The notes under the pieces: generated by a model
Databases searched by the model: none
What the model was told of the DNA's origin: nothing
What the model saw: only the letters and a program-made list of their open reading frames with translations
Position numbers and translations under genes: made by a program
Part shown: piece by piece, positions 4,812 through 23,679 of the stretch
Layout of the letters: every line of letters begins with the position of its first letter
How positions within the stretch are numbered: position 1 is the first letter of the stretch
Source of the DNA: an uncultured Dehalococcoidaceae bacterium
GTDB taxonomy: Bacteria > Chloroflexota > Dehalococcoidia > Dehalococcoidales > RBG-16-60-22
Length of the DNA: 64,000 nt
NCBI GenBank assembly: GCA_964493435.1
Contig: CAZBMB010000003.1
Coordinates: 194,016 to 258,015 of the forward strand
Reading direction: 5' to 3'

Positions 4812-4941
4812 TTTAATCAACACTCCTTTCGCTGCCGTCAGACGGTGGTATCGGGGACCCTTCCCAGAGTGTAAAACATATCCGTATTGATGGCAACACC
4901 ACTTTTTGCTGACCGGCGACGCTGTGCTATAATGGGCTGGA

Positions 4942-5508: not shown

Positions 5509-5777
5509 AGAAGGAAAAGTCAATCCCGGGGCCGGTACAGAAAGCCGGGACCAGACCAACCAGAATGGGCACCTGGAGCACAGTCAAGCCCGTGCTGAAG
5601 GGGAAGTGCACCTTCTGTCTGTTCTGCTGGGTCTTTTGCCCCGAGGGGGCTATCATCCAGGACGAGGCAAACCGTAAGGTGCGGTTCGATTTTGAGGACT
5701 GCAAGGGCTGCGGTATCTGCGCTAGGGAATGTCCCACCAAAGCCATAGAGATGGTCGAACCGGAAGGTGACAGTTAA
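5505..5777 (+). CDS. 2-oxoacid:ferredoxin oxidoreductase, delta (2x[4Fe-4S] ferredoxin) subunit
   Basis: 90 aa. Two CxxCxxCxxxCP motifs (CTFCLFCWVFCP, CKGCGICARECP). Confidence 0.85.
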   Translation: MKKEKSIPGPVQKAGTRPTRMGTWSTVKPVLKGKCTFCLFCWVFCPEGAIIQDEANRKVRFDFEDCKGCGICARECPTKAIEMVEPEGDS

Positions 5778-8357: not shown

Positions 8358-9572
8358 CTATGAAATCAGATTGACCGGGTCTTCGGCATATTCCTTCACT
8401 GTCTGCAGAAACTGAGCGCCGAGGGCGCCATCCAGAACGCGGTGGTCAATGCTCAAGGTCAGGTTCATAATCGGCCTGATGACCATCTCGCCTTTGTGCG
8501 CCACTACTTTCTCGGTAATTCGGCCCACGGCCAGAATCGCCGCCTCCGGCGGCTGGATGATGGCGCTGAACTGGTCAATATTGTACATGCCCATATTGGA
8601 GATGGTGAAAGTGCTGCCGGTCATCTCTTCTTTGGCGAGGCTGCGGTCTCTTGCCTTCTGCACCAGTTCGGCACGGACCTGAGCGATTTCAGCCAGAGAC
8701 TTCCTGTTGGCATCCCTGACGACGGGCACCATCAGGCCGCCTTCCACCGATGTCACCAGACCGATGTCAATCCGCTTGAGCAGTTTCATCGAGCCGTCGG
8801 CGTAGGCACAGTTAATGGCCGGATTTCTCTCCAGCGCTTTGGCGGCAATCTTGATAATCAGGTCGGTCAGTGTCAGCCTGACCCCGGCCTTGCTCTCAAT
8901 TATCGGCAGCAACTGCTGACGGGTTTTCTGCAATTCCTGAGTATCGACTTCTACGGTGAGGTAGAAATGTGGCGTCTGGAAGCTCTCCACCATACGGCGG
9001 GCGATTACCTCACGCATGGTGGACAGGGGGACAATCTCTTCCTCGCCTTTCGCTGCGACCTCAACGGGAGCTGGTGCCGCAGGAGTTTTACCTTCTTCGG
9101 CAAACTTGAGCACGTCTTCCCTGGTGATTCTGCCGCCCGGTCCGGTCCCGGTTACCAGGCTCAGGTCAACATTATGCTCTCTGGCGATGTTTCTGGCCAG
9201 CGGTGAGGCTTTAACCTCCTTCGGTTCCCTGGCCGCTTTCGGCGCTGCCGCTTTGGCTTCAGCCTCCGGCTTTACCTCTTTCGTCTCTTTTGCTTCCGCT
9301 TTGACCGGTGTCTCAGCCTCGGGTGCTTCCTCACCGGGCTGCAGGATATAGGCGATGGTGGTGCCGATTGGCACCTCATCACCCGCCTGGGCCGTGACCT
9401 TGCTCAGGATACCTGAGGCCTCGGCTTCAAGCTCAAAGGAGGTCTTTTCGCTCTCAATCTCAAGAATGATTTCGCCTTTCTCCACGCGGTCGCCCTCATT
9501 CTTGAGCCAGCGGACGATTTTACCGCTGGTCATTGCCTCATCAAGTTTAGGGAAGATTATGGCCACAGCCAT
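8358..9572 (-). CDS. dihydrolipoamide acyltransferase (E2) of a 2-oxoacid dehydrogenase complex
   Basis: 404 aa. Lipoyl domain (EIESEKTSFELEA), Ala/Pro/Glu/Lys linker, E3-binding segment and catalytic DHRVLDG. Confidence 0.9.
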   Translation of the reverse strand: MAVAIIFPKLDEAMTSGKIVRWLKNEGDRVEKGEIILEIESEKTSFELEAEASGILSKVTAQAGDEVPIGTTIAYILQPGEEAPEAETPVKAEAKETKEVKPEAEAKAAAPKAAREPKEVKASPLARNIAREHNVDLSLVTGTGPGGRITREDVLKFAEEGKTPAAPAPVEVAAKGEEEIVPLSTMREVIARRMVESFQTPHFYLTVEVDTQELQKTRQQLLPIIESKAGVRLTLTDLIIKIAAKALERNPAINCAYADGSMKLLKRIDIGLVTSVEGGLMVPVVRDANRKSLAEIAQVRAELVQKARDRSLAKEEMTGSTFTISNMGMYNIDQFSAIIQPPEAAILAVGRITEKVVAHKGEMVIRPIMNLTLSIDHRVLDGALGAQFLQTVKEYAEDPVNLIS

Positions 9573-9608
9573 ACTATTACCTCCGATATTGCTCCGTAGC
9601 TGGATAGC

Positions 9609-10586
9609 CTATTTACCCATCATCTCAAGGATGGCCGCCTTGATTTTTTCCGGGTTGACCAGTATATACTGCTCCTGTCCGGGGTTGAAGGAGACCGGCG
9701 AGTCAAGCGAGGCCACGCGCCTGATGGGCGCGTCCAGGTAATCGAATGCCTTCTCGCCGATGAGGGCGGCAATCTCGGCGCCAAAGCCGCCGGTGCGGCA
9801 GGCCTCGTAGACCACCATCGCCTTGCCCGTCTTCTGCACAGATTTTATTATGATGTCCTCATCAAGTGGCTTCAGCGTCCTGATGTCGACTACCTCGACA
9901 TCTACGCCATCCTTGGAGAGTTCCTCTGCGGCTTCTAGGGCGAAGTTCACACAGCGGGAGTAGGTGATAATGCTGACATCGCTGCCTTCGCGCTTCACTT
10001 CGCCTTTGCCCAGCGGTATGATGTACTCTTTCTCCGGCACCTCGCACGATTCGCCATATAGCTTCTTATGCTCGATGAAGATAACCGGGTTGTCCTCCCT
10101 GATGCTTGATTTAAGCAGGCCCTTGGCGTCGTAGGCGTTGGAGGGCATGACCACGTAGAGGCCCGGGATATGGGCGAAGATGGCCTCCAGGGACTGGGAG
10201 TGATGGGGCCCGGCGGCCACCCCGCCGCCCCCCTGCGTCCGGATGACCAGCGGTACCTTGACCATGCCGCCGGTCATGTAGCGCAGCTTGGCTATCTGGT
10301 TGATAATCTGGTCGGCGGCGATGAAGGAGAAGTCAATGTACATGATTTCGGCCACCGGCCGCATGCCGACCAGTGAGGCACCCAGCGCAGCCCCGGCGAT
10401 GGCTGCCTCTGCCAGGGGCGTGTTCCTGATGCGCTCGTGGCCGAACTCTTCCAGTAATCCCTGGCTTACCTTATAGGAACCGCCGTACTCGGCGATTTCT
10501 TCTCCCATCATGAAAACTTTGGGGTCGCGCTTCATCTCTTCGCGGAGCGCTCCCCGCACGGCTTCTCGAAAGGTTAACTCTGGCAT
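9609..10586 (-). CDS. 2-oxoacid dehydrogenase E1 beta subunit
   Basis: 325 aa. Transketolase-like pyrimidine-binding and C-terminal domains; typical MPELTFREA... start. Confidence 0.9.
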   Translation of the reverse strand: MPELTFREAVRGALREEMKRDPKVFMMGEEIAEYGGSYKVSQGLLEEFGHERIRNTPLAEAAIAGAALGASLVGMRPVAEIMYIDFSFIAADQIINQIAKLRYMTGGMVKVPLVIRTQGGGGVAAGPHHSQSLEAIFAHIPGLYVVMPSNAYDAKGLLKSSIREDNPVIFIEHKKLYGESCEVPEKEYIIPLGKGEVKREGSDVSIITYSRCVNFALEAAEELSKDGVDVEVVDIRTLKPLDEDIIIKSVQKTGKAMVVYEACRTGGFGAEIAALIGEKAFDYLDAPIRRVASLDSPVSFNPGQEQYILVNPEKIKAAILEMMGK

Positions 10587-10603
10587 GCTTCCCCCCTTTT
10601 ATA

Positions 10604-11566
10604 TCAGGCGTAAATATCTTCCAGTGCTTCTTCCGGCGTGGGCTCCGGGCTTTCCTGGGCGAACTTGACCGCTTCGTCCAGTTCCCGCAGCACATTCTGC
10701 TCGATTTCATCAAGCTCGGCGTCCGTGGCCATCTTGTTCTGTACCATCTGCTGGCGCAGTCGTTTAATCGGGTCTTTCTTCTTCCACTCCTCAACTTCCT
10801 CCTTGGGCCGGTAACTGGTGCCGGGGTCACCCATGTGGTGGCCGACGGTCCGGTAGGTGTTGGCGACGATGAGTATGGGCCCCTCACCTTTACGGCACTT
10901 CTCAATGGCCTCTATGGCTACTTCGGCAACAGCGATGGCGTCGTTGCCATCAACGCTTATCCCGGGAATACCGTAGCCTTTGGCGCGGTCGGCGATGTCG
11001 GTAAGGCGGGTGTAATCACGGGTGGGAGTGCTCTGCTGGTACTGGTTGTTCTGGCAGACGAAGAGTACAGGCAGGCTCCAGGCTGTCGCCAGCCCGATGC
11101 CTTCATGGAAAGCGCCTGAATTGGTCGCGCCGTCGCCAAAGAAAGCGACCATTATGCTGTCTTTGCCCTGCATCTTGAGGGCGGCGCCGACGCCGGCGGC
11201 GATGGGAAGGCCGTCGCCGACGATACCGGTGGCACCGAGGATATTGCGTGACACATCGGCGATGTGCATTGAGCCGCCCTTGCCCTTGCAGTAGCCGGTC
11301 TTCCTGGCGAAGAGCTCGGCCATCATGCGGTCAAGCTGGGCGCCCTTGGCGATGATATCACCGTGGCCGCGATGTGTGGTTATCGTATAGTCATCCTCGC
11401 GGAGAAAGGCGCAGACTCCCGCCGGTGTGGCTTCCTGGCCGATTGACGGATGGACAAAGCCGGGCAGCCCCTTGCGGTACTCGGTTATCGCCCTCTCTTC
11501 AAAGAAGCGGATTTTCACCATGATGGTGTACATTTCCTTGAGTTTGGCAGCGTCTATTTCCGGCAT
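10604..11566 (-). CDS. 2-oxoacid dehydrogenase E1 alpha (TPP) subunit
   Basis: Start refined to the ATG at 11566 (MPEIDAAKL), 7 nt after GGAGG. TPP motif GDGATNSGAFHE...CQNNQY. Confidence 0.88.
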   Translation of the reverse strand: MPEIDAAKLKEMYTIMVKIRFFEERAITEYRKGLPGFVHPSIGQEATPAGVCAFLREDDYTITTHRGHGDIIAKGAQLDRMMAELFARKTGYCKGKGGSMHIADVSRNILGATGIVGDGLPIAAGVGAALKMQGKDSIMVAFFGDGATNSGAFHEGIGLATAWSLPVLFVCQNNQYQQSTPTRDYTRLTDIADRAKGYGIPGISVDGNDAIAVAEVAIEAIEKCRKGEGPILIVANTYRTVGHHMGDPGTSYRPKEEVEEWKKKDPIKRLRQQMVQNKMATDAELDEIEQNVLRELDEAVKFAQESPEPTPEEALEDIYA

Positions 11567-11635
11567 AGGTAACCTCCTCTGAAGTCGCGATTGGGACAAA
11601 ATTCCAGAGTAAGATTACCATACCGCCGCTTCTGC

Positions 11636-11649: not shown

Positions 11650-11725
11650 TTGCAGACATTTCACCGGGGAGAGTATAATCCTTGTAACCCATTTTGATTT
11701 AAGCAGTTGCGAAGGAGGCACGTTG

Positions 11726-12880
11726 ATGAAAATCACTGACCTGCGCGTTTTCCAGACCCAGGGGGCCCATGCCAACTGGACATTTGTGAAGATATATACC
11801 GATGAAGGTCTTACCGGCGTCGGCGAGGCCAGCCTGGAGCGCTTCAACGACGTGGTGGCCAAGGCGGTCGAGTCATTGAAGGACTATATCATTGGCAAGG
11901 ACCCTTTCCAGATTGAACATATCTGGAACTCGATTTATAAAAGTACCTTCTGGCACGGCGGCGTAATCATACTCAGCGCGCTCAGCGGGATTGAGCAGGC
12001 GCTGTGGGACATAAAGGGGAAGGCGCTCGGCGTGCCCATTTACGAGTTCCTGGGGGGCAAGCTCAGGGATAAGGTGAGAGCCTACGCCAATGCCTGGGCT
12101 TTCCAGAAAATAGTAACCCAGGTGACGGCCGAGGATACCCCGGAATCAATCGCCGAGAATGCCCTGAAAATGGTGGCCGAAGGCTTTACCGCCATGAAGT
12201 GGGACCCGTTCCGTGAGGGAGGACAGGTCATTCCCAAGTCGGAGGAGGAATACGCCATCGCCTGCGTCAAGGCGGTGCGGGAGGCGGTGGGGCCGTCTGT
12301 GGACATACTCGTTGAATGCCACGGACGCTTCAACATGCACAGCGCCGTCCGCATGGCGCAGAAGCTGGAACCCTATGACCCGTTCTTCTATGAGGAACCG
12401 ATACCGCCGGATAACATAGATGCCATGGCTGAAGTCCAGCGGTCGATAAACCTGCCCGTGGCCACGGGCGAGCGCCTCTTCACTCGCTGGGAATTCCGCT
12501 CCCTTTTGGAGAAACAGGCGGCGCGCATTATCCAGCCTGACATCTGTCACGTGGGCGGTTTTATGGAGTTGAAAAAGGTGGCGGCTATGGCTGAATCCTA
12601 CTACGTATCCGTCCAGCCCCATAACTCCAACGGCCCCATCTGCGTGCTGGCGAGTTTGCATTTTGATGCCAGCATCCCCAATGTGCAGTTCCAGGAATTC
12701 TTCTACCCCTATCTTGACCTTTACAATGAGATGCTCACCGAGCCCATCAGGTATAAGGACGGCTATCTGGAAATACCCACCGGCCCCGGTCTGGGCTCGG
12801 ACATAAATGAGAAGTTCATCCTCAAACGGCCTCCGGTACCCCAGCCTCAATTAGCCACTTGGATAGGTTCGTACTGGTAG
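11726..12880 (+). CDS. enolase-superfamily (mandelate racemase/galactonate dehydratase-like) acid-sugar dehydratase
   Basis: About 384 aa. MKITDLRVF...ASLERF N-terminal capping domain, then a barrel with KWDPF, EEP and ATGERLFTRWEF. GAAGGAGG RBS. Confidence 0.85.
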   Translation: MKITDLRVFQTQGAHANWTFVKIYTDEGLTGVGEASLERFNDVVAKAVESLKDYIIGKDPFQIEHIWNSIYKSTFWHGGVIILSALSGIEQALWDIKGKALGVPIYEFLGGKLRDKVRAYANAWAFQKIVTQVTAEDTPESIAENALKMVAEGFTAMKWDPFREGGQVIPKSEEEYAIACVKAVREAVGPSVDILVECHGRFNMHSAVRMAQKLEPYDPFFYEEPIPPDNIDAMAEVQRSINLPVATGERLFTRWEFRSLLEKQAARIIQPDICHVGGFMELKKVAAMAESYYVSVQPHNSNGPICVLASLHFDASIPNVQFQEFFYPYLDLYNEMLTEPIRYKDGYLEIPTGPGLGSDINEKFILKRPPVPQPQLATWIGSYW

Positions 12881-12901: not shown

Positions 12902-14416
12902 ATGTTAACACAGGGGAATTACCGCTGGGATGAGACCACGGAGATACTCGTCATCGGGTACGGGCTATCCGGTGCCGTGGCGGCGATAACCGCCCATGAC
13001 CTGGGCGCGCGCGTTACGCTGCTTGAGAAGCAGCCTGCCGAGACACACAACACCTGCAGTAGCCTTGCCATGGGCGTGTTTTTATCTATCTCAAACGTTA
13101 AGCGAGCTACCGAGTATATGACTGCCCTGAACCAGGCCGGCAGCTATCCAGAGCTGCCGTGGACGGATGCGGAGACGGTGAAGGCCTGGATAACCTATAC
13201 TGCCCAGAATAAGGACTGGATCGTTCGGCTTGGTGGCAATGTCAAGCTTGTATCCAAGCTCGTCGAGTTTCCCGGGCTCCCCGGAGCTGACTGCATGGAG
13301 CTGTGGAAGTACCAGGGCAACGGCCTGCGCATGATGAAGTTCATGTATGAACAGGTGGCCTCGCGGAGGATAGACGTGCGCTACCAGACATCGGCGGCAC
13401 GGTTGTTGACCGACAACATGGGCCGGGTGGTGGGGGCGCAGGTGCTAGATTGTCGCGGAAGCGCTCCGCAGGAGGTTAACATCAGGGCCACCAAAGCGGT
13501 GCTTCTGTGCAGCGGCGGCTTTGAAGAAAACGAGGAGATGAAGCTGCAGTACCTCCGCGTCTCCCCGATGTACTTCGCCGGCGGCACCGGCAATACCGGC
13601 GACGGCATCAGGATGGCCCAGGAGGTCGGTGCCGACCTCTGGCATATGAACTGCGTCTCGGCACGACTCTGCGCCAAGTTCCCCGATTTCTACATGGGCG
13701 TTTTCATCGACTTCAGCGGCGGTGGCTGGAGCCAGAGCACGATGAAAGCGGAGAAGGCGAAGGCACCGGCCGGGTTCATCATCGTTGATAAGTATGGCCG
13801 CCGCTACATGACCGAGGAATTGAAGCCGCATACGGCTTCGTATGAATGCGGCTGGTTTGACTCCTATAAACTGGAGTACCCGCGGGTGCCCAGCTACCAC
13901 GTATTCGACCAGAGAAGGATTAAATATGGTGCCCTGGCGCAGCTGGTCAGCGGGCCCACCGGCCCGCACCGACTCTACACGTGGAGTCGGGACAACTTGG
14001 TTGAGCTGCGGAAGGGGTGGATTATAAAGGGCGATACGGTGGCCGAGCTTGCCGCCAATCTCAATATGCCACCGGAAAATCTGGCCAGCACTATCAATAC
14101 CTGGAACAAGTGCTGTCAGGCTGGCGGCGACCCCGACTTTGGCCGCAATCCGCTGGAGCTGGTGCCGCTGGACGAGCCGCCGTTCTTCGCCATCAGGTTA
14201 TTCCCCGGCGGTTCCAATACGCTCGGCGGCCCGCGACGAAACAGTCGGGCGCAGGTGCTCAATCCATTCGGTGAGCCGATTCGGGGCCTTTATGCGGCCG
14301 GCGAGTGCGGTTCGGTATTCGGCCTGCTGTATCCTGCGGGCGGCGGCAACCTGGCGGAGTGCATCGCCTTCGGCCGCATCGCTGCTGAGAGTGCGGTGAA
14401 AGAAAAAGCCGGCTAA
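12902..14416 (+). CDS. FAD-dependent oxidoreductase (FAD_binding_2; fumarate reductase/KstD-like flavoprotein)
   Basis: 504 aa. N-terminal VIGYGLSGAVAA dinucleotide fold; C-terminal GLYAAGECG motif. Confidence 0.75.
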   Translation: MLTQGNYRWDETTEILVIGYGLSGAVAAITAHDLGARVTLLEKQPAETHNTCSSLAMGVFLSISNVKRATEYMTALNQAGSYPELPWTDAETVKAWITYTAQNKDWIVRLGGNVKLVSKLVEFPGLPGADCMELWKYQGNGLRMMKFMYEQVASRRIDVRYQTSAARLLTDNMGRVVGAQVLDCRGSAPQEVNIRATKAVLLCSGGFEENEEMKLQYLRVSPMYFAGGTGNTGDGIRMAQEVGADLWHMNCVSARLCAKFPDFYMGVFIDFSGGGWSQSTMKAEKAKAPAGFIIVDKYGRRYMTEELKPHTASYECGWFDSYKLEYPRVPSYHVFDQRRIKYGALAQLVSGPTGPHRLYTWSRDNLVELRKGWIIKGDTVAELAANLNMPPENLASTINTWNKCCQAGGDPDFGRNPLELVPLDEPPFFAIRLFPGGSNTLGGPRRNSRAQVLNPFGEPIRGLYAAGECGSVFGLLYPAGGGNLAECIAFGRIAAESAVKEKAG

Positions 14417-14442: not shown

Positions 14443-15507
14443 GTGAAACAGGCAGAGCTTAAAGGAAAGATACAGACAGTATTGGGGTTGATAGCACCAG
14501 CAGAAATGGGCATCACCCTGCCACATGAGCACCTCATCTGCGATGCGACTACCTGGCATTATGCCCCGGACGAAGCCACGGAGCGGAAATGGGCCAGTCA
14601 CCCGGTGACCATCGATACCCTGTGGTGGATACGCTATCATCCTTTCCAGAACCTGGATGACCTGCAGCTGATGGATGAGGAGTTGGTGATAGATGAGGTC
14701 ATGCGTTACAAGGCGCTGGGTGGGGAAACGATTGTGGAACTTACCGTGCGCGGACTTTACCCTGACCCGAAGGCGGTGGCCCGCATCGCCCGCAGCACCG
14801 GTGTGAATATCATCATGGGCACCGCTTACTATGTGGAGTCTTCGTATCCGGCGACTGGCGTCGATGTCAATGCCAAGAGTGAGGAAGAAATCGCCGAGGA
14901 GTTCGTCAAAGATATTTTTGAAGGTTTCGGCAGCACCGGGATACATGCCGGGCTTATCGGTGAGATAGGCTGCTCCTGGCCTTTCACCGCCAATGAGCAG
15001 AAGGTGGTGCGGGCCGGAGCACGTGCTCAGAAAGTCACCGGCGCTGCGGTTAACATTCACCCCGGCCAGAACGAGATGGCGGCTATGGAGTGCATCAAGG
15101 TACTGGACAAAGCAGGCGCTGACCTGAGCCGCGTGGTTATGAGCCACTGTGACCGTGCGGTGCGAGAGCCGGCAAATCGCATTGAGCTGGCCAAGACCGG
15201 CTGTACCATTGAGTATGACCTGTTCGGAAGAGAAGGCTACTATCCCACACGCTTCCGTGTGCTGGATATTCCCAATGACGCCCAGCGTATCAACGAGATA
15301 AAAGAACTGGCCGATAAAGGTTTTGAGAAGCAGATTTTCGTTTCGCACGATAATTACACAAAAAGCGCGCTCTGCCGCTACGGCGGCTGGGGCTACGGAC
15401 ACATCCTGCGGGATACCGTGCCGGTGATGAAAATCAAAGGCCTCTCGCAGGGGCTTATCGATACTATAATGATTGAAAATCCAAAGCGGATGTTCACCTT
15501 TGTGTGA
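14443..15507 (+). CDS. phosphotriesterase-family (PTE/PHP-like) amidohydrolase, possible lactonase
   Basis: 354 aa with a GTG start. GITLPHEHLICD metal-binding motif typical of PTE homology proteins. Confidence 0.8.
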   Translation: MKQAELKGKIQTVLGLIAPAEMGITLPHEHLICDATTWHYAPDEATERKWASHPVTIDTLWWIRYHPFQNLDDLQLMDEELVIDEVMRYKALGGETIVELTVRGLYPDPKAVARIARSTGVNIIMGTAYYVESSYPATGVDVNAKSEEEIAEEFVKDIFEGFGSTGIHAGLIGEIGCSWPFTANEQKVVRAGARAQKVTGAAVNIHPGQNEMAAMECIKVLDKAGADLSRVVMSHCDRAVREPANRIELAKTGCTIEYDLFGREGYYPTRFRVLDIPNDAQRINEIKELADKGFEKQIFVSHDNYTKSALCRYGGWGYGHILRDTVPVMKIKGLSQGLIDTIMIENPKRMFTFV

Positions 15508-15527: not shown

Positions 15528-16802
15528 ATGAGCAACAGGCAAAAAACAAAGGTGCCGGTGCTGGCCTGGTACGGTGACGAGGAACTGGAGATAGATTTTC
15601 CGGAAGCCTGGGACGTCACCGTCTGCAAAATGAAGGGGCACGATGCACCACCCCTCTCCGATGCCCAGATACGGAAGGCTTTCGCCAATCCCGTTGGCAC
15701 CAGGACGGTAAAGGAGCTGGCCAGGGGCAAAAAGGAGGTGGCCATCCTCTTTGATGACCTTTCCCGGCCAACGCCGTCAGCCATGCTGATACCATACATT
15801 CTAGAAGAGCTCAAGGCGGCGGGTATTCCCGATGACAACATCCGTTTCATTGCCGCCATCGGCGCTCACGGCACCATGAATGGTATCGACTTTCGGAAGA
15901 AGCTGGGCGATGATGTCATGTCGCGGTTCCTGTTCTACAACCATAATCCGTATGAGAACTGCACCCCGCTGGGGGTCAGCAAGTATGGAACACCAATGGA
16001 GGTTAACAGCGAGTTCATGGCCTGCGACCTTAAAATAGGCATCGGCGTCATCGTGCCGCATCCCTATGGCTTTGGCGGTGGCTGCAAAATCATCCTGCCC
16101 GGCGTCGCCTCCATGCAGACGATTGCCTCAAACCACAACCGGCTGGTGTTTGACCCCTCGGTGGCCATCGGCAAGCTGCGCGAAAACGTTATCCTTGAAG
16201 ACATCATTGAAGCTGCCCGTATGGCCCGGCTTGATGTCAAGGTGGACGCCATCGTCAACCTGAAAAGGGAAGTGACTGCGCTATTCGTGGGCGACCCGGT
16301 TGAAGAGCACAAGGCAGGCGTTGAGGTTGCCAAAAAACATTACGCTACGGATATGGTGCACAATGCCGATATTGTGGTGGCCAACTGCTTCTCCAAGGCG
16401 AATGAAATGACCCTGGCGCCGCCGGTGGTCTCACCGCTGCTGGCTGAAGACGGAGGTGGCGATATGGTGCTGGTAGTGGTGACGCCGGAAGGGCAGATAC
16501 ACCACTATTTCGACCGCAGTTTCGGCAAGAACTACGGCGGGCTGGGATGGGGACCACTAATCCGCAAGAGTACGCTACCAGATAGAACGAAGAAGCTGTC
16601 CATTCTAGCGCCGTATTCGGATAAGGTCGGTGCCGACTGGGTGGCGCCGTATGAGATGGTTCACCAGGCCAGGAACTGGCCGGAGGTAATTAAAGACTTG
16701 GAGCGGCGGTACGGCAATAAAGCTAAAGTAGCCGTGGTGCCTGACGCCACCGTCCAGTATTTCCCGGAAGCGGTACCGAAGTGTGACGTCTGCTCCGGCT
16801 AG
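15528..16802 (+). CDS. LarA-like nickel-pincer-nucleotide-dependent 2-hydroxyacid racemase/epimerase homologue (paralogue 1)
   Basis: 424 aa. Motifs ILFDDLSRPTP, AAIGAHG, VPHPYGFGGGCKIILPGV and ASNHN parallel the LarA cofactor and catalytic motifs. Confidence 0.8.
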   Translation: MSNRQKTKVPVLAWYGDEELEIDFPEAWDVTVCKMKGHDAPPLSDAQIRKAFANPVGTRTVKELARGKKEVAILFDDLSRPTPSAMLIPYILEELKAAGIPDDNIRFIAAIGAHGTMNGIDFRKKLGDDVMSRFLFYNHNPYENCTPLGVSKYGTPMEVNSEFMACDLKIGIGVIVPHPYGFGGGCKIILPGVASMQTIASNHNRLVFDPSVAIGKLRENVILEDIIEAARMARLDVKVDAIVNLKREVTALFVGDPVEEHKAGVEVAKKHYATDMVHNADIVVANCFSKANEMTLAPPVVSPLLAEDGGGDMVLVVVTPEGQIHHYFDRSFGKNYGGLGWGPLIRKSTLPDRTKKLSILAPYSDKVGADWVAPYEMVHQARNWPEVIKDLERRYGNKAKVAVVPDATVQYFPEAVPKCDVCSG

Positions 16803-16825
16803 GCCGAAAAGGGAGGACATAAATA

Positions 16826-16866
16826 AAGCAGGGTGTCGGCTGTATTATTATGTCGGCACCCTGCTT
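16826..16866. terminator. bidirectional intrinsic terminator between the convergent larA-like genes
   Basis: A 15-bp stem (AAGCAGGGTGTCGGC / GTCGGCACCCTGCTT, with two G:U pairs), an 11-nt loop, and T-rich tracts on both sides. Confidence 0.7.
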
Positions 16867-16892
16867 CTTATTTAAGTTGAGACTCTGATGTT

Positions 16893-18170
16893 TTAGTCGC
16901 CGGGAACGGTGGGACCTTTGGGCATACTGCTGTGCGGGAAGTATTGCAGCGTGCCGTCGGGCACGACCACCGCTTTGGCTTTAGCGCCGTGGTTCTTTTT
17001 CAGCGCGGCCAGTATCTCAGCCCAGCTGTTAAGTATGGTTATCTTGTCAATGGCGCCGATCCAGTCAAGCCCGGCCTTGTCAATGTACGGTCCGAGGGCA
17101 TACATTCTTTTCACCCGTGCCGGCAGTTTCTTATGGGCGCCATAGAGCTTGCCGCCGATTGTCTTGCCAAAGCTGCGGGCAAGGTAGTGGCATATCTGGC
17201 CCTCGGGGATGTTGCCGATGATGACGAGGTCGCCGCCGGACTCTTTAAGCATTTTACTGCCCAGCCCGGCCACCAGTGCCGACTCGTTGGCTTTGGCATA
17301 GGAATTGGCCACGACAATATCAGCATCACTCGGTGCCTCGCAGGCGTAGACTTTGCGGCCCATCTTCACGCCCTCGCGCTGGGCTTCAACAAGGTCGCCG
17401 CAGAAGAGAGCAATGGTGTCGCGGTCGATGTTCACCAGGGCGTTGATGGAGAAATCAAGCCCCGCCATGCGCGCAATTTCCTCCATGTCCAGCCTCTGAA
17501 CGTTATCGTCCACTCTGCCCCAGGTATCCAGTATAATGGTGCCAGTTTCGGAAATGGTGCACAACTTGCCGTGGTTGGTGGCAATGGACTTGGCGCTCGA
17601 CACGCCCGGTAGAATCATCTTACCCCCGCCGCCGAAACCGGCGGTGGGGTGGGGCACCAGCGACCCGATGGATACCTTCAGGTCGCAGGCCATGAACTCG
17701 CTGTTCACCTCGACCGGGACGCCGCGCGAAGTGTCACCCAGGTAGGTGCAGTTCTCATACGGGTTGTGGTTGAAGACCAGGTACTTTTGAGGAATTTCCA
17801 TCCCCAGCTTTTTCTGGAAGTCCATGAGTTTCATGGCGCCGTGCAGGCCGAGGGCGGCGATAAATCTGATGTTCTCATCCTTGATACCTCCCTCGTGCAG
17901 CTCATCCAGAACGTGCGGCACAATCTGGTCGGCCTTGGTGGGGCGGGTAAGGTCATCAAAGATAATGCATACCTCTTTTTTTCCTTTGGCCATTTCGGCG
18001 AGTCGCGGCGTGCCAATGGGCTTGCGAAGGGCGTCCCGTATCTGTTGGGCAGTCAGTTTGGGGGCTTTCTCCCCGGCCATTCTGGGTATAATCACCTCCC
18101 AGGAATCGGGAAGCTCAAGCTCCAGTTCAGTGTCACCATACCAGGGGAACTGCGGCACTTTGACAATCAT
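16893..18170 (-). CDS. LarA-like nickel-pincer-nucleotide-dependent 2-hydroxyacid racemase/epimerase homologue (paralogue 2)
   Basis: 425 aa. Motifs IIFDDLTRPTK, AALGLHG, VPHPTAGFGGGGKMILPGV and ATNHG. AAGGAGG RBS. Confidence 0.8.
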   Translation of the reverse strand: MIVKVPQFPWYGDTELELELPDSWEVIIPRMAGEKAPKLTAQQIRDALRKPIGTPRLAEMAKGKKEVCIIFDDLTRPTKADQIVPHVLDELHEGGIKDENIRFIAALGLHGAMKLMDFQKKLGMEIPQKYLVFNHNPYENCTYLGDTSRGVPVEVNSEFMACDLKVSIGSLVPHPTAGFGGGGKMILPGVSSAKSIATNHGKLCTISETGTIILDTWGRVDDNVQRLDMEEIARMAGLDFSINALVNIDRDTIALFCGDLVEAQREGVKMGRKVYACEAPSDADIVVANSYAKANESALVAGLGSKMLKESGGDLVIIGNIPEGQICHYLARSFGKTIGGKLYGAHKKLPARVKRMYALGPYIDKAGLDWIGAIDKITILNSWAEILAALKKNHGAKAKAVVVPDGTLQYFPHSSMPKGPTVPGD

Positions 18171-18268
18171 GCTATACCTCCTTAACCTTGTTATGTAGCC
18201 GATATTATCTGCTTATCTTCTAATAAAGCGCCTTGGTGTGTCAAGCGAGATTGACCATTATAACTGCC

Positions 18269-19468
18269 TTACAGTATCGGCCCAAGCTTGTACAGGACGA
18301 TTGGTTCACGGTAGCCCCGGCGCATCTCGCGCTTGGTCTGCTTGCCGGAGGCAACCGCAATGACCTCGTCTAAAAGACGGTCGGCCACCTGTTCAACCGA
18401 TTCCGCCCCCTCCACAATTGTGTCGGCGTAAATATCAAAGAAATTTTTTTCCTGGCTGTCCCGCGGCTTGCTCTGTCGGCTGACCACGGAAATCTGGGGA
18501 ACAATCGGCATCTCACCGCCCCAGCCTGCCACACAGCGGAAGCTGGAGGTAATGCCGCCTCCTGTAGAATAGAGATGGATGTGCGCGCCGGCAGCTATTT
18601 CGCCGCTTACCAGCTCGCTGGTCTGGGCCGAGCCGTCCATGAAGTACAGGCCCTTGCCATCTGGTTTCTCACCATGTTCCAGCGCGCCCTGCAGCGGCGA
18701 TTTCCCGGTCTTGGCCATCGCCCCCAGTGATTTATCCTCAATGGTGGTCAAGCCCTCGGCGATATTGCCGCGGGTGGGCTGGGTGCCCCTGATGTCCTCG
18801 CCGGTGGCCTTAATCATCGCTTCCTGTCGTTCTACCAAGCTGCGAAACTTTCTGGCTACCTCTTCATTAACCGCCCTTTTGGCTATAAGATGGTCAGCAC
18901 CGATGACCTCGGTGGTCTCGGAGAAGATGGCGGTGCCGCCTTCGGCTATCAGGCGGTCAAATACCATGCCGATAACCGCATTGCCGGCTATGCCTGATAT
19001 GGCACTGGAGCCGCCACATTTCACGCCCAGAGTAAGATAGCTGAGAGGAAAAGGTTTCCTCTGCATCCGGGACGCCTCGGCGACCATGCGGCGGGCGGTG
19101 GTCAGAGCCCGGTCAAGGAGGCTCTGGTAACCATCGCTCTCCATTATGGTGAGGACTTCCACCGGCTTCTTCGTCTTGGTAATGCCCTCGGCAATCTTGG
19201 CTGGTGATGGGTTCTCGCAGCCAACGCCCACTATAAGGACGGCGGCCGCGTTGGGGTTGCTGCCCATGCCGGAGAGTACCCGCGACGCCTTCTCGTTATC
19301 GTCCTTGAGGTTGGCACAGGAGTGGGTAGTAATAACGGGTATGGCACCTGGCACGGCATCGGCGATGGCGGCGGCCATTTCGTTGGCGCAGCGATTGGCT
19401 GCGATGATGACCACGTGGTTGCGTATGCCGACGGAACCGTCAGGCCTTTCATAACCCATAAATTCCAT
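18269..19468 (-). CDS. UxaA/SuyB-type dehydratase large subunit (second copy)
   Basis: 399 aa. Motifs GIRNHVVII, VKCGGSSAISG and GNIAEGLTTIEDKSLGA. Confidence 0.8.
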   Translation of the reverse strand: MEFMGYERPDGSVGIRNHVVIIAANRCANEMAAAIADAVPGAIPVITTHSCANLKDDNEKASRVLSGMGSNPNAAAVLIVGVGCENPSPAKIAEGITKTKKPVEVLTIMESDGYQSLLDRALTTARRMVAEASRMQRKPFPLSYLTLGVKCGGSSAISGIAGNAVIGMVFDRLIAEGGTAIFSETTEVIGADHLIAKRAVNEEVARKFRSLVERQEAMIKATGEDIRGTQPTRGNIAEGLTTIEDKSLGAMAKTGKSPLQGALEHGEKPDGKGLYFMDGSAQTSELVSGEIAAGAHIHLYSTGGGITSSFRCVAGWGGEMPIVPQISVVSRQSKPRDSQEKNFFDIYADTIVEGAESVEQVADRLLDEVIAVASGKQTKREMRRGYREPIVLYKLGPIL

Positions 19469-19767
19469 TACTTTGCCTCCTTGGCGCCGGGAAGGAGGGC
19501 GCTGACGACGTTTTGCGTGTGAACATGCTCGCCTTTGCTTATTGGCTGGCTGGCCAGGCCAATAACCTCCCCGTACTTCAGAATTTTTTCGCCCTTCTTG
19601 ATATCAACAACAGCCAGTTTGTGCCCGAATGGTACCGCCTGCTTGGCGGTCATTTCCCCAACCGGCCCCGATTTTGAGACCAGACCGATGCTTTCACCAG
19701 CCTCAATGTCACTCAGGGCAGTGGCGGTATTATCGTCGGGGTTGATCCTCATTGCTCTTTTCATCAT
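19468..19767 (-). CDS. UxaA/SuyA-type dehydratase small (SAF) subunit (second copy)
   Basis: 99 aa. GHKLAVVDIKKGEKILKYGEVIGLASQPISKGEHVHTQN. Its stop overlaps the large-subunit start. Confidence 0.8.
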   Translation of the reverse strand: MMKRAMRINPDDNTATALSDIEAGESIGLVSKSGPVGEMTAKQAVPFGHKLAVVDIKKGEKILKYGEVIGLASQPISKGEHVHTQNVVSALLPGAKEAK

Positions 19768-19981: not shown

Positions 19982-20010
19982 TTGACAGCGCTTCTTTATC
20001 AAATTACAAT
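19982..20010 (+). promoter_or_regulatory. near-consensus sigma70-type promoter (TTGACA-17-TACAAT) for the 2-hydroxyacid dehydrogenase gene
   Basis: TTGACA at 19982-19987 and TACAAT at 20005-20010. A 9-bp direct repeat TATCAAATT at 19975 and 19997 overlaps both boxes. Confidence 0.55.
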
Positions 20011-20051: not shown

Positions 20052-21056
20052 ATGGAGGGCAGACCAAAAGTGGTTCGTGTGGATAAGGTGATTGATCGCG
20101 ATGTCATCAAGGAGGAGCGCGAGGAACTGGCCAAGGTCAATGCCGAACTGGTGCTGGCCGAGTGTCAGACCGAAGAGGAGACAATTGCCGCTACCAGGGA
20201 CGCTGACGCCGTGCTCACGTTCTTTGGCCAGATGACGCGCCGGGTCATTGAGTCCAGCCCGAAACTGAGGGTAATCGTGCGCTACGGCATCGGCTATGAT
20301 ACGGTGGATGTTGATGCCGCCACCGACAACGGTGTGCTGGTGGTGAACCTCCCCGGCTTCTGCCTTGATGAAGTCGCTGACCACGCGATTGCGCTGATGT
20401 TGGCCTGTGTCCGGAAGCTGGTCTACTACAATAACCTGACCAAATCGGGCTACTGGGCGAAGTACAGTGAAATGTCAATGTATTCCTTCACCGACCGGAC
20501 GCTGGGGCTTGTTGGCTGCGGCACCATCGGGCAGGCAGTGGCCAGGAGAGCGAAGGGTTTTAACCTGAAAATTCTGGGCACTGACCCTTACGTGAAAGAG
20601 TCCGTGGCCAGGGAGCATGGCATAACGCTGGTGAGTATGCCGGAGTTGCTCGGTAAATCTGATTTCGTTTCCGTGCACTCGCTTCTGGGTAAAGAGACAC
20701 ACCACCTGATTGGTGAAAAAGAGTTCAGGCAGATGAAACCCAGCGCTTACTTCGTCAATACGTCACGCGGCCCGGTGGTTGATGAAAAGGCGCTGATTAA
20801 GGCGCTGCGGGAGAAGTGGATTGCCGGTGCCGGGATAGATGTCTTTGAACAGGAGCCGGTTGCTCCCGATAATCCTCTGCTCAAAATGGACAACGTGGTG
20901 GTTACCCCGCATAATGCCGGCTGGTCTGATGCTGCGGGGCAGCGGGCAAGATTGTGGGTAGGGCAGGAAGCGGTCCGGGTTCTTAGTGGTAAATGGCCCA
21001 AAAACTGTGTAAATAAAGACGTCAAGCCGAAGGTCGCACTAGAAAAGGGGGACTAA
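20052..21056 (+). CDS. D-isomer-specific 2-hydroxyacid dehydrogenase (PGDH/CtBP family)
   Basis: 334 aa. NAD fold GLVGCGTIGQAV, plus RGPVVDE and VTPHNAG. Confidence 0.85.
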   Translation: MEGRPKVVRVDKVIDRDVIKEEREELAKVNAELVLAECQTEEETIAATRDADAVLTFFGQMTRRVIESSPKLRVIVRYGIGYDTVDVDAATDNGVLVVNLPGFCLDEVADHAIALMLACVRKLVYYNNLTKSGYWAKYSEMSMYSFTDRTLGLVGCGTIGQAVARRAKGFNLKILGTDPYVKESVAREHGITLVSMPELLGKSDFVSVHSLLGKETHHLIGEKEFRQMKPSAYFVNTSRGPVVDEKALIKALREKWIAGAGIDVFEQEPVAPDNPLLKMDNVVVTPHNAGWSDAAGQRARLWVGQEAVRVLSGKWPKNCVNKDVKPKVALEKGD

Positions 21057-22128: not shown

Positions 22129-22157
22129 TATATACATTTAAGGTTATTATCTGTCAA
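22129..22157 (-). promoter_or_regulatory. candidate promoter for the NHL gene (TTGACA-17-TATATA)
   Basis: Reverse strand reads cTTGACAgataataaccttaaatgTATATAat. The -35 box overlaps the stop codon of the upstream ThrC-like gene. Confidence 0.45.
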
Positions 22158-23287
22158 GGCGAAATCAGTTTCATTATCTTATCCGTGGCCTTAAGGCCAT
22201 GGCCGGTGAATACGGAAACGATGACTTCATCTGGACTTGAGCCAGGAAGGTATTTCTTTACGCCGGCGATGGTCGCCGCCGACGTGGGCTCAATGCAGTA
22301 GCCCATGCATCCCATCTCCACCAGCGACTTTTTTATCTCGTCCTCGCTTACCGTTAAAAATTCACCGCCGGTCTGCCGGACGGCATCAATGATTTGCCGG
22401 CCTCTTATCGGTTTGGCAATGGCGATGCCTTCGGCCAGTGTTTCCTTAGTTTCCGCTGGCGGGACTTCTGTCAGGTTTTCCCGGTGGGCACGGTAAAGCG
22501 GGGCGCAGTTCGCCGCCTGCACGCCGATTATCTTGGGCATGCGGGCGGTGATTCCCGCCCGCAGTAGCTCCTTGAAGCCGATACAGGCACCGAGCAGGAG
22601 CGTGCCATTGCCAACGGGAAGGATAACGGTGTCAGGAGGTTTCCAGCCAAGCTGCTCGCACACCTCGTAGGCGAAGGTCTTGGTCCCCTGGAAGAAAAAG
22701 GGATTTCGGGCATGGCTGGCATAATATGTCCTGGCGGCAGCCATCAGGGCTGCCTGTGCCGTGTCCTCCCTGGTGCCGGGTATCTGGTGCAGTTCGGCGC
22801 CGTACAGCCGTATCTGAACCAGCTTGCCGGCGGAAGTATTTTCTGGTACATAAATGTGGCATTTGATGTCAGCGCGGGCGCAGTAGGCGGCGATGGCCGC
22901 GCCGGCATTTCCCGAGGAGTCCTCAACTACCTCTTTTATGCCCAGCTCCTTTACCTTGCTGATGAGGGCGGAGGCCCCTCTATCTTTGTAGGAGCCGGTT
23001 GGGGACAACTGGTCCTGCTTTACCAAAATAATTCTGCCGTCAATCAAGACTTCGGACAGTGGGGTGAATCCTTCATCAAGGGAAACGATATTTTCGTCTT
23101 TCTCCAGGGGGATGGCCTCGCGGTAGCGCCACATGTTTGGCTTTCTCCCTTTTATCCTGACCGGGTCAAATGCGGGCGGAAAGTCAATATCCAGAATGCC
23201 GCCGCAGTCGCACCGCCATCGCGGTTCATCCAGCGGATATGATTTTCGGCACTCATTGCAGGTGAGCTGGCGCATGATAAGCCTCAT
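22154..23287 (-). CDS. threonine synthase-like PLP enzyme with N-terminal zinc ribbon
   Basis: 377 aa. CNEC...CDCGG ribbon and PLP-lysine motif SPTGSYKDRGA. Function (ThrC versus another beta-replacement/elimination enzyme) is not resolvable by eye. Confidence 0.75.
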   Translation of the reverse strand: MRLIMRQLTCNECRKSYPLDEPRWRCDCGGILDIDFPPAFDPVRIKGRKPNMWRYREAIPLEKDENIVSLDEGFTPLSEVLIDGRIILVKQDQLSPTGSYKDRGASALISKVKELGIKEVVEDSSGNAGAAIAAYCARADIKCHIYVPENTSAGKLVQIRLYGAELHQIPGTREDTAQAALMAAARTYYASHARNPFFFQGTKTFAYEVCEQLGWKPPDTVILPVGNGTLLLGACIGFKELLRAGITARMPKIIGVQAANCAPLYRAHRENLTEVPPAETKETLAEGIAIAKPIRGRQIIDAVRQTGGEFLTVSEDEIKKSLVEMGCMGYCIEPTSAATIAGVKKYLPGSSPDEVIVSVFTGHGLKATDKIMKLISP

Positions 23288-23679
23288 TTCTTTTTCATGG
23301 CGGCAATGGCGTCAATCTCAACCTGGAAACCATAGTGCAAATTCGGTGTCGGCACCACGGTGCGTGCCGGTCGGTGCTCGTCGAAGAATCGGGCATACAC
23401 CGCGTTCAATCGTTCCCAGAGCGACATATCGGCGATGTAAACGGTTACCTTCAGTACCTGGTCCATATCGCTGCCGGCGGCTCGCAATACCTCGGCGAGG
23501 TTCTTCAGCACCTGTTCCGTCTGTTCTTCAATAGAGCCGGTCTTTTTCTCTCCGGATACCGGGTCAATCGGCAGCTGACCGCATGCGTAAACGGTATCGT
23601 TGTGGACGATGGCCTGGGAATAGTGCCCGGCCGGTTCGGGTGCGCTTTTGGTAAGTATTATCTTCATTTTCCTCGGCAC
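23284..23679 (-). CDS. ridA: RidA/YjgF/TdcF-family reactive enamine/imine deaminase
   Basis: 131 aa. APEPAGHYSQA...GQLPIDP...ARTVVPT...EIDAIA. Its stop overlaps the ThrC-like start (ATGA). Confidence 0.85.
   Translation of the reverse strand: MPRKMKIILTKSAPEPAGHYSQAIVHNDTVYACGQLPIDPVSGEKKTGSIEEQTEQVLKNLAEVLRAAGSDMDQVLKVTVYIADMSLWERLNAVYARFFDEHRPARTVVPTPNLHYGFQVEIDAIAAMKKK

Follow-up and report, generated by a model that had tools for sequence, protein, structure and literature searches.

Which reaction is served by two nickel-pincer racemase homologues that face each other beside stereospecific dehydratase genes in an uncultured Dehalococcoidaceae bacterium? The two genes, LarA1 and LarA2, lie in a 64,000-nucleotide stretch of contig CAZBMB010000003.1 (assembly GCA_964493435.1, positions 194,016 to 258,015 of the forward strand), which is referred to here as the window. 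LarA homologues are, to our knowledge, the sole large enzyme family built on nickel-pincer nucleotide (NPN) as its cofactor, and about half of the LarA superfamily has no assigned substrate. An earlier reading of this DNA (the original prediction) had proposed that a racemase is paired here with a stereospecific dehydratase or sulfo-lyase. Our analysis extends known biology and does not overturn it: LarA1 and LarA2 are both intact, belong to an uncharacterised clade of LarA enzymes and lie in a hydroxy-acid catabolic island that is conserved. Both are probably functional NPN-dependent 2-hydroxyacid racemases or C2-epimerases, which would feed the correct epimer to the adjacent dehydratases. 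The central features are given below in window coordinates.

15528-16802, plus strand: LarA1, LarA-superfamily homologue of 424 aa (Pfam Lar_N, 180.6 bits, cut-off 23)
16816-16878, intergenic: hairpin between LarA1 and LarA2 with a core stem (16828-16840 / 16852-16864), an A-rich 5′ side and a U-rich 3′ side
16893-18170, minus strand: LarA2, LarA-superfamily homologue of 425 aa (Pfam Lar_N, 195 bits, cut-off 23)
18269-19468, minus strand: UxaA2, large (catalytic) subunit of a split UxaA/GarD-family dehydratase (Pfam GD_AH_second and GD_AH_C; GarD 6u7l, E 1e-44)
19468-19767, minus strand: SAF2, small SAF-domain subunit of the split dehydratase (Pfam SAF, 33 bits; matches the N-terminus of the GarD model TIGR03248)

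Family, fold and catalytic residues of LarA1 and LarA2

The motifs quoted in the original prediction were all present in both proteins: FDDLSRPT in LarA1 and FDDLTRPT in LarA2, AAIGAHG and AALGLHG, PHPYGFGGGCK and PHPTAGFGGGGK, and SNH and TNH. Residues were mapped onto Lactobacillus plantarum LarA (PDB 5HUQ) with a profile of 28 family members and, independently, by MAFFT alignment with the L. plantarum protein from plasmid NZ_CP055122. The equivalents of L. plantarum D72, R75, H108, H174, K184 and H200 are D77, R80, H114, H178, K187 and H203 in LarA1, and D73, R76, H110, H174, K184 and H200 in LarA2. Both catalytic His residues and all NPN-binding residues (the tethering Lys, the Ni-ligand His, the Arg and the Asp) were invariant in a family alignment of 36 homologues sharing 48-92% identity. 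Loss of the Lys or His residues on a proper alignment, which had been put forward as a check, was thus seen in none of the 36. Invariance over such wide divergence argues against decay of the LarA genes.

An AlphaFold2 model of LarA1 had a mean predicted local distance difference test score of 88 and a predicted template-modelling (TM) score of 0.89. When it was searched against the PDB with Foldseek, all 19 significant matches were LarA-family structures (LarA or Sar), aligned over their full length with TM scores up to 0.80. The nearest solved relatives of the two proteins are the malate racemase Mar2, the broad-spectrum Sar and lactate racemases. The top PDB match of LarA1 was Mar2 (6d6z, E 9e-48). 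This LarAH6 enzyme from Thermoanaerobacterium thermosaccharolyticum (PDB 6D6Z/7S91) was the top match in sequence and structure (E 1e-45 to 1e-59) and shares the N-terminal NPN-binding motifs, but identity over the structural alignment is only about 26%, and Mar2 is found with malic enzyme, not with dehydratases. L. plantarum LarA likewise shares the fold (TM 0.72-0.80) and the six residues listed above at about 22% identity, whereas its F175, F176 and W358 and its Q295/K298 pair are not conserved in the window proteins. As far as sequence can tell, LarA1 and LarA2 are bona fide LarA-superfamily proteins (Pfam PF09861, COG3875) with a complete set of catalytic and NPN-binding residues.

The two proteins are 49% identical (BLASTP, E 2e-145), and no characterised enzyme is as close to either as they are to each other. 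Homologue searches returned 2416 matches for LarA1 and 1578 for LarA2, the latter reaching down to 53% identity in Chloroflexota and Desulfobacterales. As LarA2 has a homologue series of its own, the pair appears to stem from an old duplication. The 90% clusters of both proteins are named 'DUF2088 domain-containing protein [Dehalococcoidia bacterium]'.

Placement within the superfamily rests on NCBIfam cut-offs and PDB scores. The NCBIfam equivalog models comprise LarA, the LarAH5 and LarAH6 malate racemases, LarAH10, LarAH14/15/16 and a 'nickel-dependent putative hexonate epimerase' (group 18). The top score was to the LarAH6 malate racemase model (NF052593; LarA1 233.6 and LarA2 242.0 bits, cut-off 500). 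The LarAH5 malate racemase model (NF052595) gave 200.8 and 198.9 bits (cut-off 462), and the lactate racemase LarA model (NF033504) gave 200.7 and 198.4 bits (cut-off 460) over approximately residues 15-285. The hexonate-epimerase model (NF052594) matched LarA2 at 32.6 bits (cut-off 500) and did not match LarA1. Judged by these scores, LarA1 and LarA2 appear to belong to none of the curated LarAH groups and to represent an uncharacterised LarA-superfamily clade.

As published, lactate racemases have the specificity signature F, F, W, E/Q, the gluconate epimerases GntE have E, V, A, H, and malate racemases have (H/Q)-K. At the positions of L. plantarum F175/F176 we found P179/Y180 in LarA1 and P175/T176 in LarA2; the family has P and T/Y/F there, and has no Trp equivalent. 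The C-terminal part of the family has invariant residues of its own (K290, N292 and E293; G322-Q323, H326-Y327 and R330-S331), lying in the clade motifs K290-x-N-E293 and G322-Q-x2-H-Y-x2-R-S-F-G-K. A basic pair lies near the position of the malate racemase Lys, with K355 in 29 and K/R356 in all 36 homologues. The (H/Q)-K ('GHK') position itself falls in a deletion followed by T/V-K(29/36)-K/R(36/36), a stretch that HMMER and MAFFT place differently. A substrate call from the published four-residue signature was rejected, as the C-terminal positions are not alignable.

These data bear on the simplest alternative, that the proteins are ordinary lactate racemases or cofactor-less relics without a racemase role. 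Many homologues are named 'nickel-dependent lactate racemase' by JGI annotation, and the window holds no larBCE genes, but both proteins score less than half the lactate racemase cut-off, they lack the signature F175, F176 and W358 together with the Q295/K298 pair, and neither a lactate permease nor a lactate dehydrogenase is found in their context. The invariant catalytic and NPN-binding residues oppose the relic version. We regard either form as extremely unlikely.

Gene partners of LarA1 and LarA2

Open reading frame (ORF) and Pfam calls confirmed the coordinates and spacings given in the original prediction. LarA1 is the final gene of a tight operon, enolase-FAD_binding_2-PTE-LarA1, whose genes lie 20-26 nt apart. 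In the SAF2-UxaA2-LarA2 operon LarA2 comes third, with a gap of 98 nt between UxaA2 and LarA2. A second split dehydratase is encoded further to the left, and in both pairs SAF and UxaA are separate, overlapping ORFs. The other genes of the island are as follows.

1634-2830, plus strand: Ldh_2-family 2-hydroxyacid/2-oxoacid dehydrogenase, 5′ of SAF1 (Pfam Ldh_2, 364.8 bits)
2873-3181 and 3178-4335, plus strand: SAF1 and UxaA1, first split UxaA/GarD-type dehydratase (Pfam, translation, Cys pattern)
5777-7803, plus strand: PorA/PorB-like 2-oxoacid:ferredoxin oxidoreductase (OFOR), 3′ of SAF1/UxaA1 (Pfam POR_N, PFOR_II, TPP_enzyme_C)
8358-11599, minus strand: pyruvate dehydrogenase (PDH)-like E1alpha/E1beta/E2 2-oxoacid dehydrogenase genes, divergent from the enolase operon (Pfam)
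11723-12880, plus strand: enolase-superfamily acid-sugar dehydratase, DgoD-like (MR_MLE_N/C; NCBIfam PRK14017 galactonate dehydratase, 357.6 bits, cut-off 311)
12902-14416, plus strand: FAD_binding_2 flavoprotein oxidoreductase of the fumarate-reductase / TcuA / ketosteroid-dehydrogenase type (Pfam, 128 bits; every NCBIfam match below cut-off)
14443-15507, plus strand: phosphotriesterase (PTE)-family hydrolase, possible lactonase (Pfam PTE, 257.6 bits; NCBIfam matches below cut-off, including phospho-furanose lactonase)
20052-21056, plus strand: D-isomer-specific 2-hydroxyacid dehydrogenase, divergent from the SAF2 operon (Pfam 2-Hacid_dh/2-Hacid_dh_C)
22154-23287, minus strand: ThrC-like pyridoxal-phosphate enzyme (Pfam PALP; TIGR00260, 174.5 bits, cut-off 167)
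23284-23679, minus strand: RidA (Rid family, 137 bits, cut-off 106)

The spacer of 90 nt between LarA1 and LarA2 gave an RNA fold of -36.1 kcal/mol (z = -4.93), and none of 200 shuffled sequences was equally stable. The hairpin, with its A-rich and U-rich flanks, looks like a bidirectional terminator shared by both convergent genes, as had been suggested, although it was not picked up by a simple terminator scanner.

Gene context was surveyed in one scan of species-representative genomes, in which ORFs were called and neighbours clustered at 45 loci (numbered with the prefix L), nearly all from Dehalococcoidia with a few from Desulfobacterota. The clade is common in Dehalococcoidia and in some Desulfobacterota. 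The convergent LarA1|LarA2 pair, with both genes intact, was found in at least 10 Dehalococcoidia metagenome-assembled genome (MAG) contigs at 77-97% identity, and is therefore not a product of chance or of assembly. Close relatives (at least 75% identity) retain the arrangement enolase-FAD-PTE-LarA1 | LarA2-UxaA2-SAF2, often together with the PDH-like E1/E2, the 2-hydroxyacid dehydrogenase, an NHL protein, and the ThrC-like PALP and RidA genes; in 6 of 7 of them a UxaA pair lies within 2.5 kb of LarA. The 2-hydroxyacid dehydrogenase next to SAF2 is kept in L002, L004, L005 and L008, and PDH-like E1/E2 genes accompany this gene set in L003, L008, L010, L038 and L051.

More distant loci show the same coupling. 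Of 12 informative loci at 60-67% identity, 10 have SAF and UxaA directly 5′ of the LarA1-like gene, co-directional with it and with gaps of 7-217 nt. These SAF/UxaA pairs are nearer to SAF1/UxaA1 of the window (51-55%) than to SAF2/UxaA2. The operon in this class comprises a glycerate-2-kinase-like gene (DUF4147/MOFRL), SAF, UxaA, LarA, an MhpD/HpaH-type FAH-family enzyme and a fused IOR-like 2-oxoacid:ferredoxin oxidoreductase; OFOR genes follow SAF-UxaA-LarA modules in L019 and L028-L036. In the 68-74% class a UxaA pair was present at 3 of 7 cluster-scored loci, or at 4 of 8 when the truncated UxaA ORF of L043 was counted by hand. Genomic coupling of the LarA genes to stereospecific dehydratases is thus supported, and the clade is repeatedly linked to Fe-dependent UxaA-type dehydratases and ferredoxin-dependent oxoacid oxidoreductases.

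One locus of a more distant relative, L051 (GCA_964638295.1, CAZWYS010000001.1, 5677-19278), has a RidA-PALP-SAF-UxaA-LarA2-like operon convergent with a FAD_binding_2 gene, which there co-localises with the LarA2-like genes. Next come PDH-like E1/E2, enolase, enoyl-CoA hydratase (ECH) and acyl-CoA dehydrogenase (ACAD) genes and a second SAF/UxaA pair. As this locus holds the genes of the window island in another order, the island genes travel together in shuffled order. In L020 (DAOUEN010000002.1, 1397-10274) a lone LarA1-like gene has around it three UxaA-like large subunits, which share 44%, 50% and 41% identity with those of the window, an arrangement that resembles local dehydratase amplification. 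A second kind of LarA context was also seen, made up of an MtmB-like methyltransferase, B12-binding proteins, URO-D/MtaA-like proteins and class-III aminotransferases, often with a TRAP transporter.

In the window itself, the region 1634-7803 comprises Ldh_2, SAF1/UxaA1, a membrane-like ORF without a family match (4332-5435, minus strand), and then a ferredoxin gene and PorA/PorB 3′ of the dehydratase pair. This order resembles the SAF-UxaA-LarA-(FAH)-OFOR operon of the distant genomes, as if LarA1 had been displaced 11 kb from an ancestral dehydratase partner. The membrane-like ORF was ruled out as a conserved UxaA partner, as it is not homologous to the similarly placed ORF of L043.

A partnership of LarA with UxaA is not new, being on record for LarAH group 5, which includes Mar1 of Desulfitobacterium hafniense: COG2721 'altronate dehydratase' occurs in 100% of its contexts and TctC/TctA in 26% (Table S1, PMC7583248). 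Like Mar1, the window proteins have both catalytic His residues, the tethering Lys and a COG2721 gene context; LarA2 lies just 3′ of UxaA2, as the LarA1-like orthologues lie 3′ of their UxaA pairs. The native substrate of Mar1, characterised as a malate racemase, is doubtful, and tartrate has been proposed. The window proteins differ from this group in scoring below its model cut-off, in the C-terminal domain and specificity motifs, in having no Tct transporter in the window, and in being paralogues that face each other. A further example is found in Sporomusa termitida, in which plasmid pSPTER (L048, NZ_CP036260.1, 6311-14302) carries an enolase-family gene, TctCBA, a LarA-like gene named 'NPN isomerase group 22' by NCBIfam, SAF and UxaA, and GntR. 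Its LarA-like protein has no BLASTP similarity to LarA1 or LarA2. Since this BLAST-unrelated gene has the same partners, the partnership either is ancient or was assembled more than once. The S. termitida gene was considered as the characterised LarAH62 and rejected, given its group 22 name and the lack of BLASTP similarity to LarA1 and LarA2.

The dehydratases had been described as 'SuyAB/UxaA-type', and the UxaA half of this description held while the SuyAB half did not. UxaA1 and UxaA2 share 41% identity, and SAF1 and SAF2 39%. Both window pairs have the SAF, GD_AH_second and GD_AH_C domains of the altronate, galactarate, D-idonate and D-arabinonate dehydratases, and GarD (6U7L) aligns over its full length; the window enzymes differ in being split into two polypeptides and in reaching only 181.9 and 220 bits with the GarD equivalog model TIGR03248 (cut-off 731). 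Four Cys are conserved in UxaA/GarD enzymes with the exception of sulfolactate sulfo-lyase (Watanabe et al. 2019, PMC6336799). All four columns hold Cys in UxaA1, UxaA2, the LarA-linked homologue of L031 and the S. termitida protein, and E. coli GarD aligns likewise.

For comparison, SuyB references were found with a SuyB query derived by optical character recognition (OCR) and were then checked by gene context, since PGAP names every plasmid match 'UxaA family hydrolase'. Those retained were from Paracoccus versutus (pTAV3, GntR-suyA-suyB-sulfate exporter) and Cupriavidus pinatubonensis (hpsN-hpsO-...-suyA-suyB). Of the four Cys columns, the first three hold I/L, R and a gap in both proteins, and one Cys is kept. 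UxaA1 was 35% identical to the P. versutus and 37% to the C. pinatubonensis protein, values that apply to UxaA1 only. UxaA2 was compared solely with the OCR-transcribed P. pantotrophus SuyB, to which UxaA1 and UxaA2 showed 31-32% identity by BLASTP (UxaA2 about 31%). By contrast, a published search with SuyB of Desulfovibrio sp. DF1 retrieved 397 homologues of more than 70% identity, from Proteobacteria to Firmicutes (Burrichter et al. 2018, PMC6278857). The split dehydratases of the window are therefore of UxaA/GarD type (COG2721) and not SuyAB orthologues.

These comparisons weigh on the proposal that 3-sulfolactate is racemised by the LarAs and cleaved by the split UxaA pairs as SuyAB-type sulfo-lyases, a scheme that would convert (S)-sulfolactate to pyruvate and sulfite and replace the SlcC/ComC two-dehydrogenase route. 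The heteromeric SAF and catalytic subunits are a SuyAB trait found in both window pairs, and SuyAB shares with the window enzymes, by homology, a beta-elimination from a 2-hydroxyacid to a 2-oxoacid. However, a split dehydratase does not imply SuyAB, because a heteromeric L-fuconate dehydratase of the UxaA family has been inferred (Watanabe et al. 2019, PMC6336799). Sulfolactate is an analogue of malate, the nearest relatives of the LarAs are malate racemases, and basic residues are conserved; pyruvate-type PorAB and PDH-like genes adjoin. A sulfolactate dehydrogenase context is suggested by the Ldh_2 gene beside SAF1-UxaA1, whose top NCBIfam match is L-sulfolactate dehydrogenase, but at 238.8 bits against a cut-off of 500 (second match, malate/lactate/ureidoglycolate dehydrogenase, 213 against 336). 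A TauE/SafE-family membrane protein is encoded at 39887-40639, but it lies 20-35 kb away in another cluster; no TauE homologue was found within 10 kb of LarA in the 45 related loci, and there is no adjacent sulfite/sulfate exporter in the window. Moreover, the conserved partners elsewhere (glycerate-kinase-like, MhpD/HpaH-like and IOR-like) carry no sulfonate logic. The sulfolactate reading is, on balance, very unlikely. If it were true, LarA together with split UxaA would give anaerobic subsurface Dehalococcoidia a new way from organosulfonates to pyruvate, of the 'racemise-then-eliminate' kind.

The original prediction had also held that no LarA-type sulfolactate or sugar-acid racemase was described. 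No report of sulfolactate together with a nickel-pincer enzyme was found in the literature searched, in agreement with the first part of this statement. Sugar-acid enzymes of this type are, by contrast, published: Desguin et al. (2020, PMC7583248) characterised two D-gluconate 2-epimerases along with malate racemases and a hydroxyglutarate racemase, and Urdiain-Arraiza et al. (2024, PMC11770544) contributed 14 more reactions and reported epimerisation of D/L/meso-tartrate by malate racemases and of arabinarate by a hydroxyglutarate racemase. The D-gluconate 2-epimerases on record are GntE1, GntE2 and LarAH15 (PMC7583248, PMC11770544). D. hafniense is both a carrier of a SuyB of more than 70% identity (PMC6278857) and the source of Mar1, whose group always neighbours COG2721 (PMC7583248). 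If the COG2721 neighbour of Mar1 were SuyAB, Mar1 would be a candidate sulfolactate racemase.

Proposed reaction and candidate substrates

The scheme that we propose adds cofactor loading, activity, substrate and pathway order to the observed homology, fold, residue conservation and gene linkage. From established LarA chemistry, NPN would be tethered to Lys187 of LarA1 (Lys184 of LarA2), with nickel bound by His203 (His200). His114 and His178 (His110 and His174) would alternately accept the hydroxyl proton, while the C2 hydride passes to C4 of the pyridinium ring to give a transient 2-oxoacid and then returns on the opposite face. In this way each LarA would act on a 3-hydroxylated carboxylic acid and turn its 'wrong' C2 epimer into the form taken by the neighbouring stereospecific dehydratases. 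The predicted acceptors are the Fe/Cys-type split UxaA/GarD enzymes (SAF2-UxaA2 and SAF1-UxaA1) and the DgoD-like enolase-superfamily enzyme. Both kinds of dehydratase would yield a 2-oxo-3-deoxy acid by removing the proton at C2 and expelling the substituent at C3; because catalysis starts at the C2 proton, they would be specific for one C2 configuration. The product may then undergo ferredoxin- or lipoamide-dependent oxidative decarboxylation by the pyruvate-type PorAB or PDH-like enzymes. The recurrent order SAF-UxaA-LarA-(FAH)-OFOR suggests just such a flow, from epimer through LarA and dehydratase to the 2-oxo-3-deoxy acid and its oxidative decarboxylation. The logic first suggested for this locus, to racemise and then apply a stereospecific lyase, is reasonable.

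Several observations weigh against this scheme. Both LarAs fall far below every curated LarAH equivalog cut-off, and beyond about residue 285 they are no longer covered by the curated models. Of the L. plantarum residues further on, the carboxylate binders Q295/K298 are matched by S/A and N or by an insertion, and W358/T359, the specificity residues, meet a deletion; neither pair is conserved, and the second is not confidently alignable. Sequence does not reveal the substrate or even the type of reaction. In the window, no UxaA pair adjoins LarA1. LarA1-like genes at 69-70% identity (L017, L037 and L041) lie among MtmB-like, corrinoid-protein and aminotransferase genes, and LarA2-like genes at 57-64% (L049 and L052, 62-64%; L050, 57%) lie beside TRAP, B12-binding and URO-D genes, so coupling to dehydratases is not universal. 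Finally, as had been noted before, the window contains no larB, larC or larE: none was found by Pfam in ORFs of at least 200 aa, and L. plantarum LarB, LarC1, LarC2 and LarE gave no phmmer match in six-frame segments of at least 50 aa, nor did a Desulfobacterota LarE match anything in the window. L. plantarum has larA-larB-larC1-larC2-larE in a row, whereas the window LarAs have no adjacent larBCE operon.

The last point is uninformative over a 64-kb window, because larB/C/E are often not beside larAH genes: in the groups of Table S1 of Desguin 2020 that were examined, they adjoin in 28-64% of contexts, and they are not among the contexts listed there for LarAH group 5 (PMC7583248). LarAH genes were present in 8 of 19 Chloroflexota in a COG survey. 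Among 50 related loci searched with phmmer (L. plantarum set and a Desulfobacterota LarE), no LarB, LarC or LarE was found apart from the LarE of L043, in the closed MAG CP070660. This is a bona fide LarE (TIGR00268, 349 bits, cut-off 150) 3 kb from a UxaA-LarA module. It lies in a sulfur-mobilisation cluster (Thi4-like, NifU, NifS, CysE, ferredoxin; CP070660.1, 3766-9975) just 5′ of the UxaA ORF and LarA homologue. The UxaA ORF looks truncated, at 283 aa, and has no SAF partner. With this LarE as a query, the best 120 matches listed bear Desulfobacterota-type or unspecific names.

For the proposed racemase or epimerase, we favour a substrate of the polar sugar-acid type, either a C4-C6 dicarboxylic acid (tartrate- or aldarate-like) or an aldonate, and rank both above sulfolactate and lactate. 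The dicarboxylic option is suggested by the affinity to malate racemases, the basic pair, the Tct genes in groups 5 and 22, and the FAD_binding_2, Ldh_2 and PALP-RidA neighbours. The aldonate option is suggested by the DgoD-like enzyme, which scores above the galactonate-dehydratase cut-off, by the PTE hydrolase, and by KduD-like short-chain dehydrogenases (SDRs) in relatives.

In its strict form the dicarboxylic reading makes the LarAs malate racemases or tartrate (aldarate) C2-epimerases like LarAH5/Mar1, with the split UxaA enzymes leading to oxaloacetate or a keto-deoxy-aldarate and then to pyruvate. The top NCBIfam and PDB matches are indeed malate racemases, which as a group act on tartrate stereoisomers as well, and the Km of Mar1 for malate is 55 mM, its authors proposing tartrate or 2-hydroxysuccinamate as the true substrate (PMC7583248). 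GarD, a UxaA-family member, acts on an aldarate; the island has families of C4-diacid type (FAD_binding_2, Ldh_2, ThrC-like PALP with RidA) and pyruvate-type OFOR/PDH genes. Set against this, the scores are less than half the malate racemase cut-offs, the (H/Q)-K signature is not confidently alignable, and the window has neither a Tct transporter, its TRAP genes lying at 31.8-34.9 kb, nor an oxaloacetate decarboxylase. We treat this strict reading as possible but doubtful.

A GntE-like role as aldonate (hexonate or pentonate) 2-epimerases is tentative to a similar degree. Here the PTE-family hydrolase, encoded in the same operon as LarA1, would open a sugar lactone, and C2 epimerisation would precede dehydration by the DgoD-like or UxaA-like enzyme. 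Altronate, idonate, arabinonate and fuconate are all substrates of UxaA-family dehydratases, and related loci contain glucose-dehydrogenase-like as well as KduD-like SDRs, an erythronate-dehydrogenase-like gene and TRAP transporters. Their MhpD/HpaH-type FAH enzyme is like the partner of a UxaA-type dehydratase in Watanabe's pentonate route. LarA-type aldonate epimerases exist, and GntE (LarAH19/20/15) shares the concept of an NPN-dependent C2 epimerase in a sugar-acid catabolic cluster that feeds a downstream stereospecific enzyme. However, GntE belongs to another clade, its signature (L. plantarum positions 175/176/358/359) is absent from the window proteins, the hexonate-epimerase model is barely matched, and no KDG (2-keto-3-deoxygluconate) kinase or aldolase is encoded in the window.

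There is also a slim chance that the native substrate is new to LarA enzymes, for example 3-sulfolactate, with a one-protein racemase feeding a divergent, Cys-retaining sulfo-lyase, or, in a milder version, that the clade provides the missing gene of the orphan tartrate epimerase activity, coupled to a new UxaA-type tartrate dehydratase. The clade, which abounds in uncultured Dehalococcoidia and has metagenomic homologues by the thousand, is a good target for assigning a new NPN-dependent substrate. Once solved, its substrate would annotate a widespread anaerobic hydroxy-acid pathway, would probably explain the native role of Mar1 (group 5), and might give a gene to an orphan epimerase.

Other features of the window

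NCBIfam scores for the oxoacid enzymes of the island were 477 bits for pyruvate synthase PorA (cut-off 550) and 355 for PorB (405), and 404.8 bits for PDH E1beta (321) and 351.7 for E1alpha (393.9). Divergent promoter-like sites lie between the SAF2 operon and the dehydrogenase at 20052 (19957-19928, minus strand; 19982-20010, plus strand). The ThrC-like PALP protein was considered as a cysteate synthase, but no such model was among the 25 best of 40 NCBIfam matches, in which ThrC models dominate.

A separate minus-strand catabolic cluster at 29821-40639 encodes a glyoxalase-fold protein, a putative cyclase, TRAP DctM/DctP, an IclR regulator, two SDRs, a zinc alcohol dehydrogenase and an IolG-like GFO oxidoreductase; the TauE/SafE gene is divergent from it. 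At 45459-53279, three adjacent genes encode an FdhA/NuoG-like molybdopterin oxidoreductase, a NuoF-like/GltD-like fusion of 1018 aa and a MetV/MetF methylene-tetrahydrofolate reductase, a trio that resembles a Wood-Ljungdahl-type electron-bifurcating set. The G+C content is 0.46-0.50 at 40-48 kb, against 0.55-0.58 in the left part of the window. A DUF362 protein was ruled out as a member of a new NPN-enzyme family (Nat Chem 2026), as that family is AKR. On the minus strand at 57084-60351, its gene adjoins MobB, MoeA and MobA, which are molybdenum-cofactor genes.

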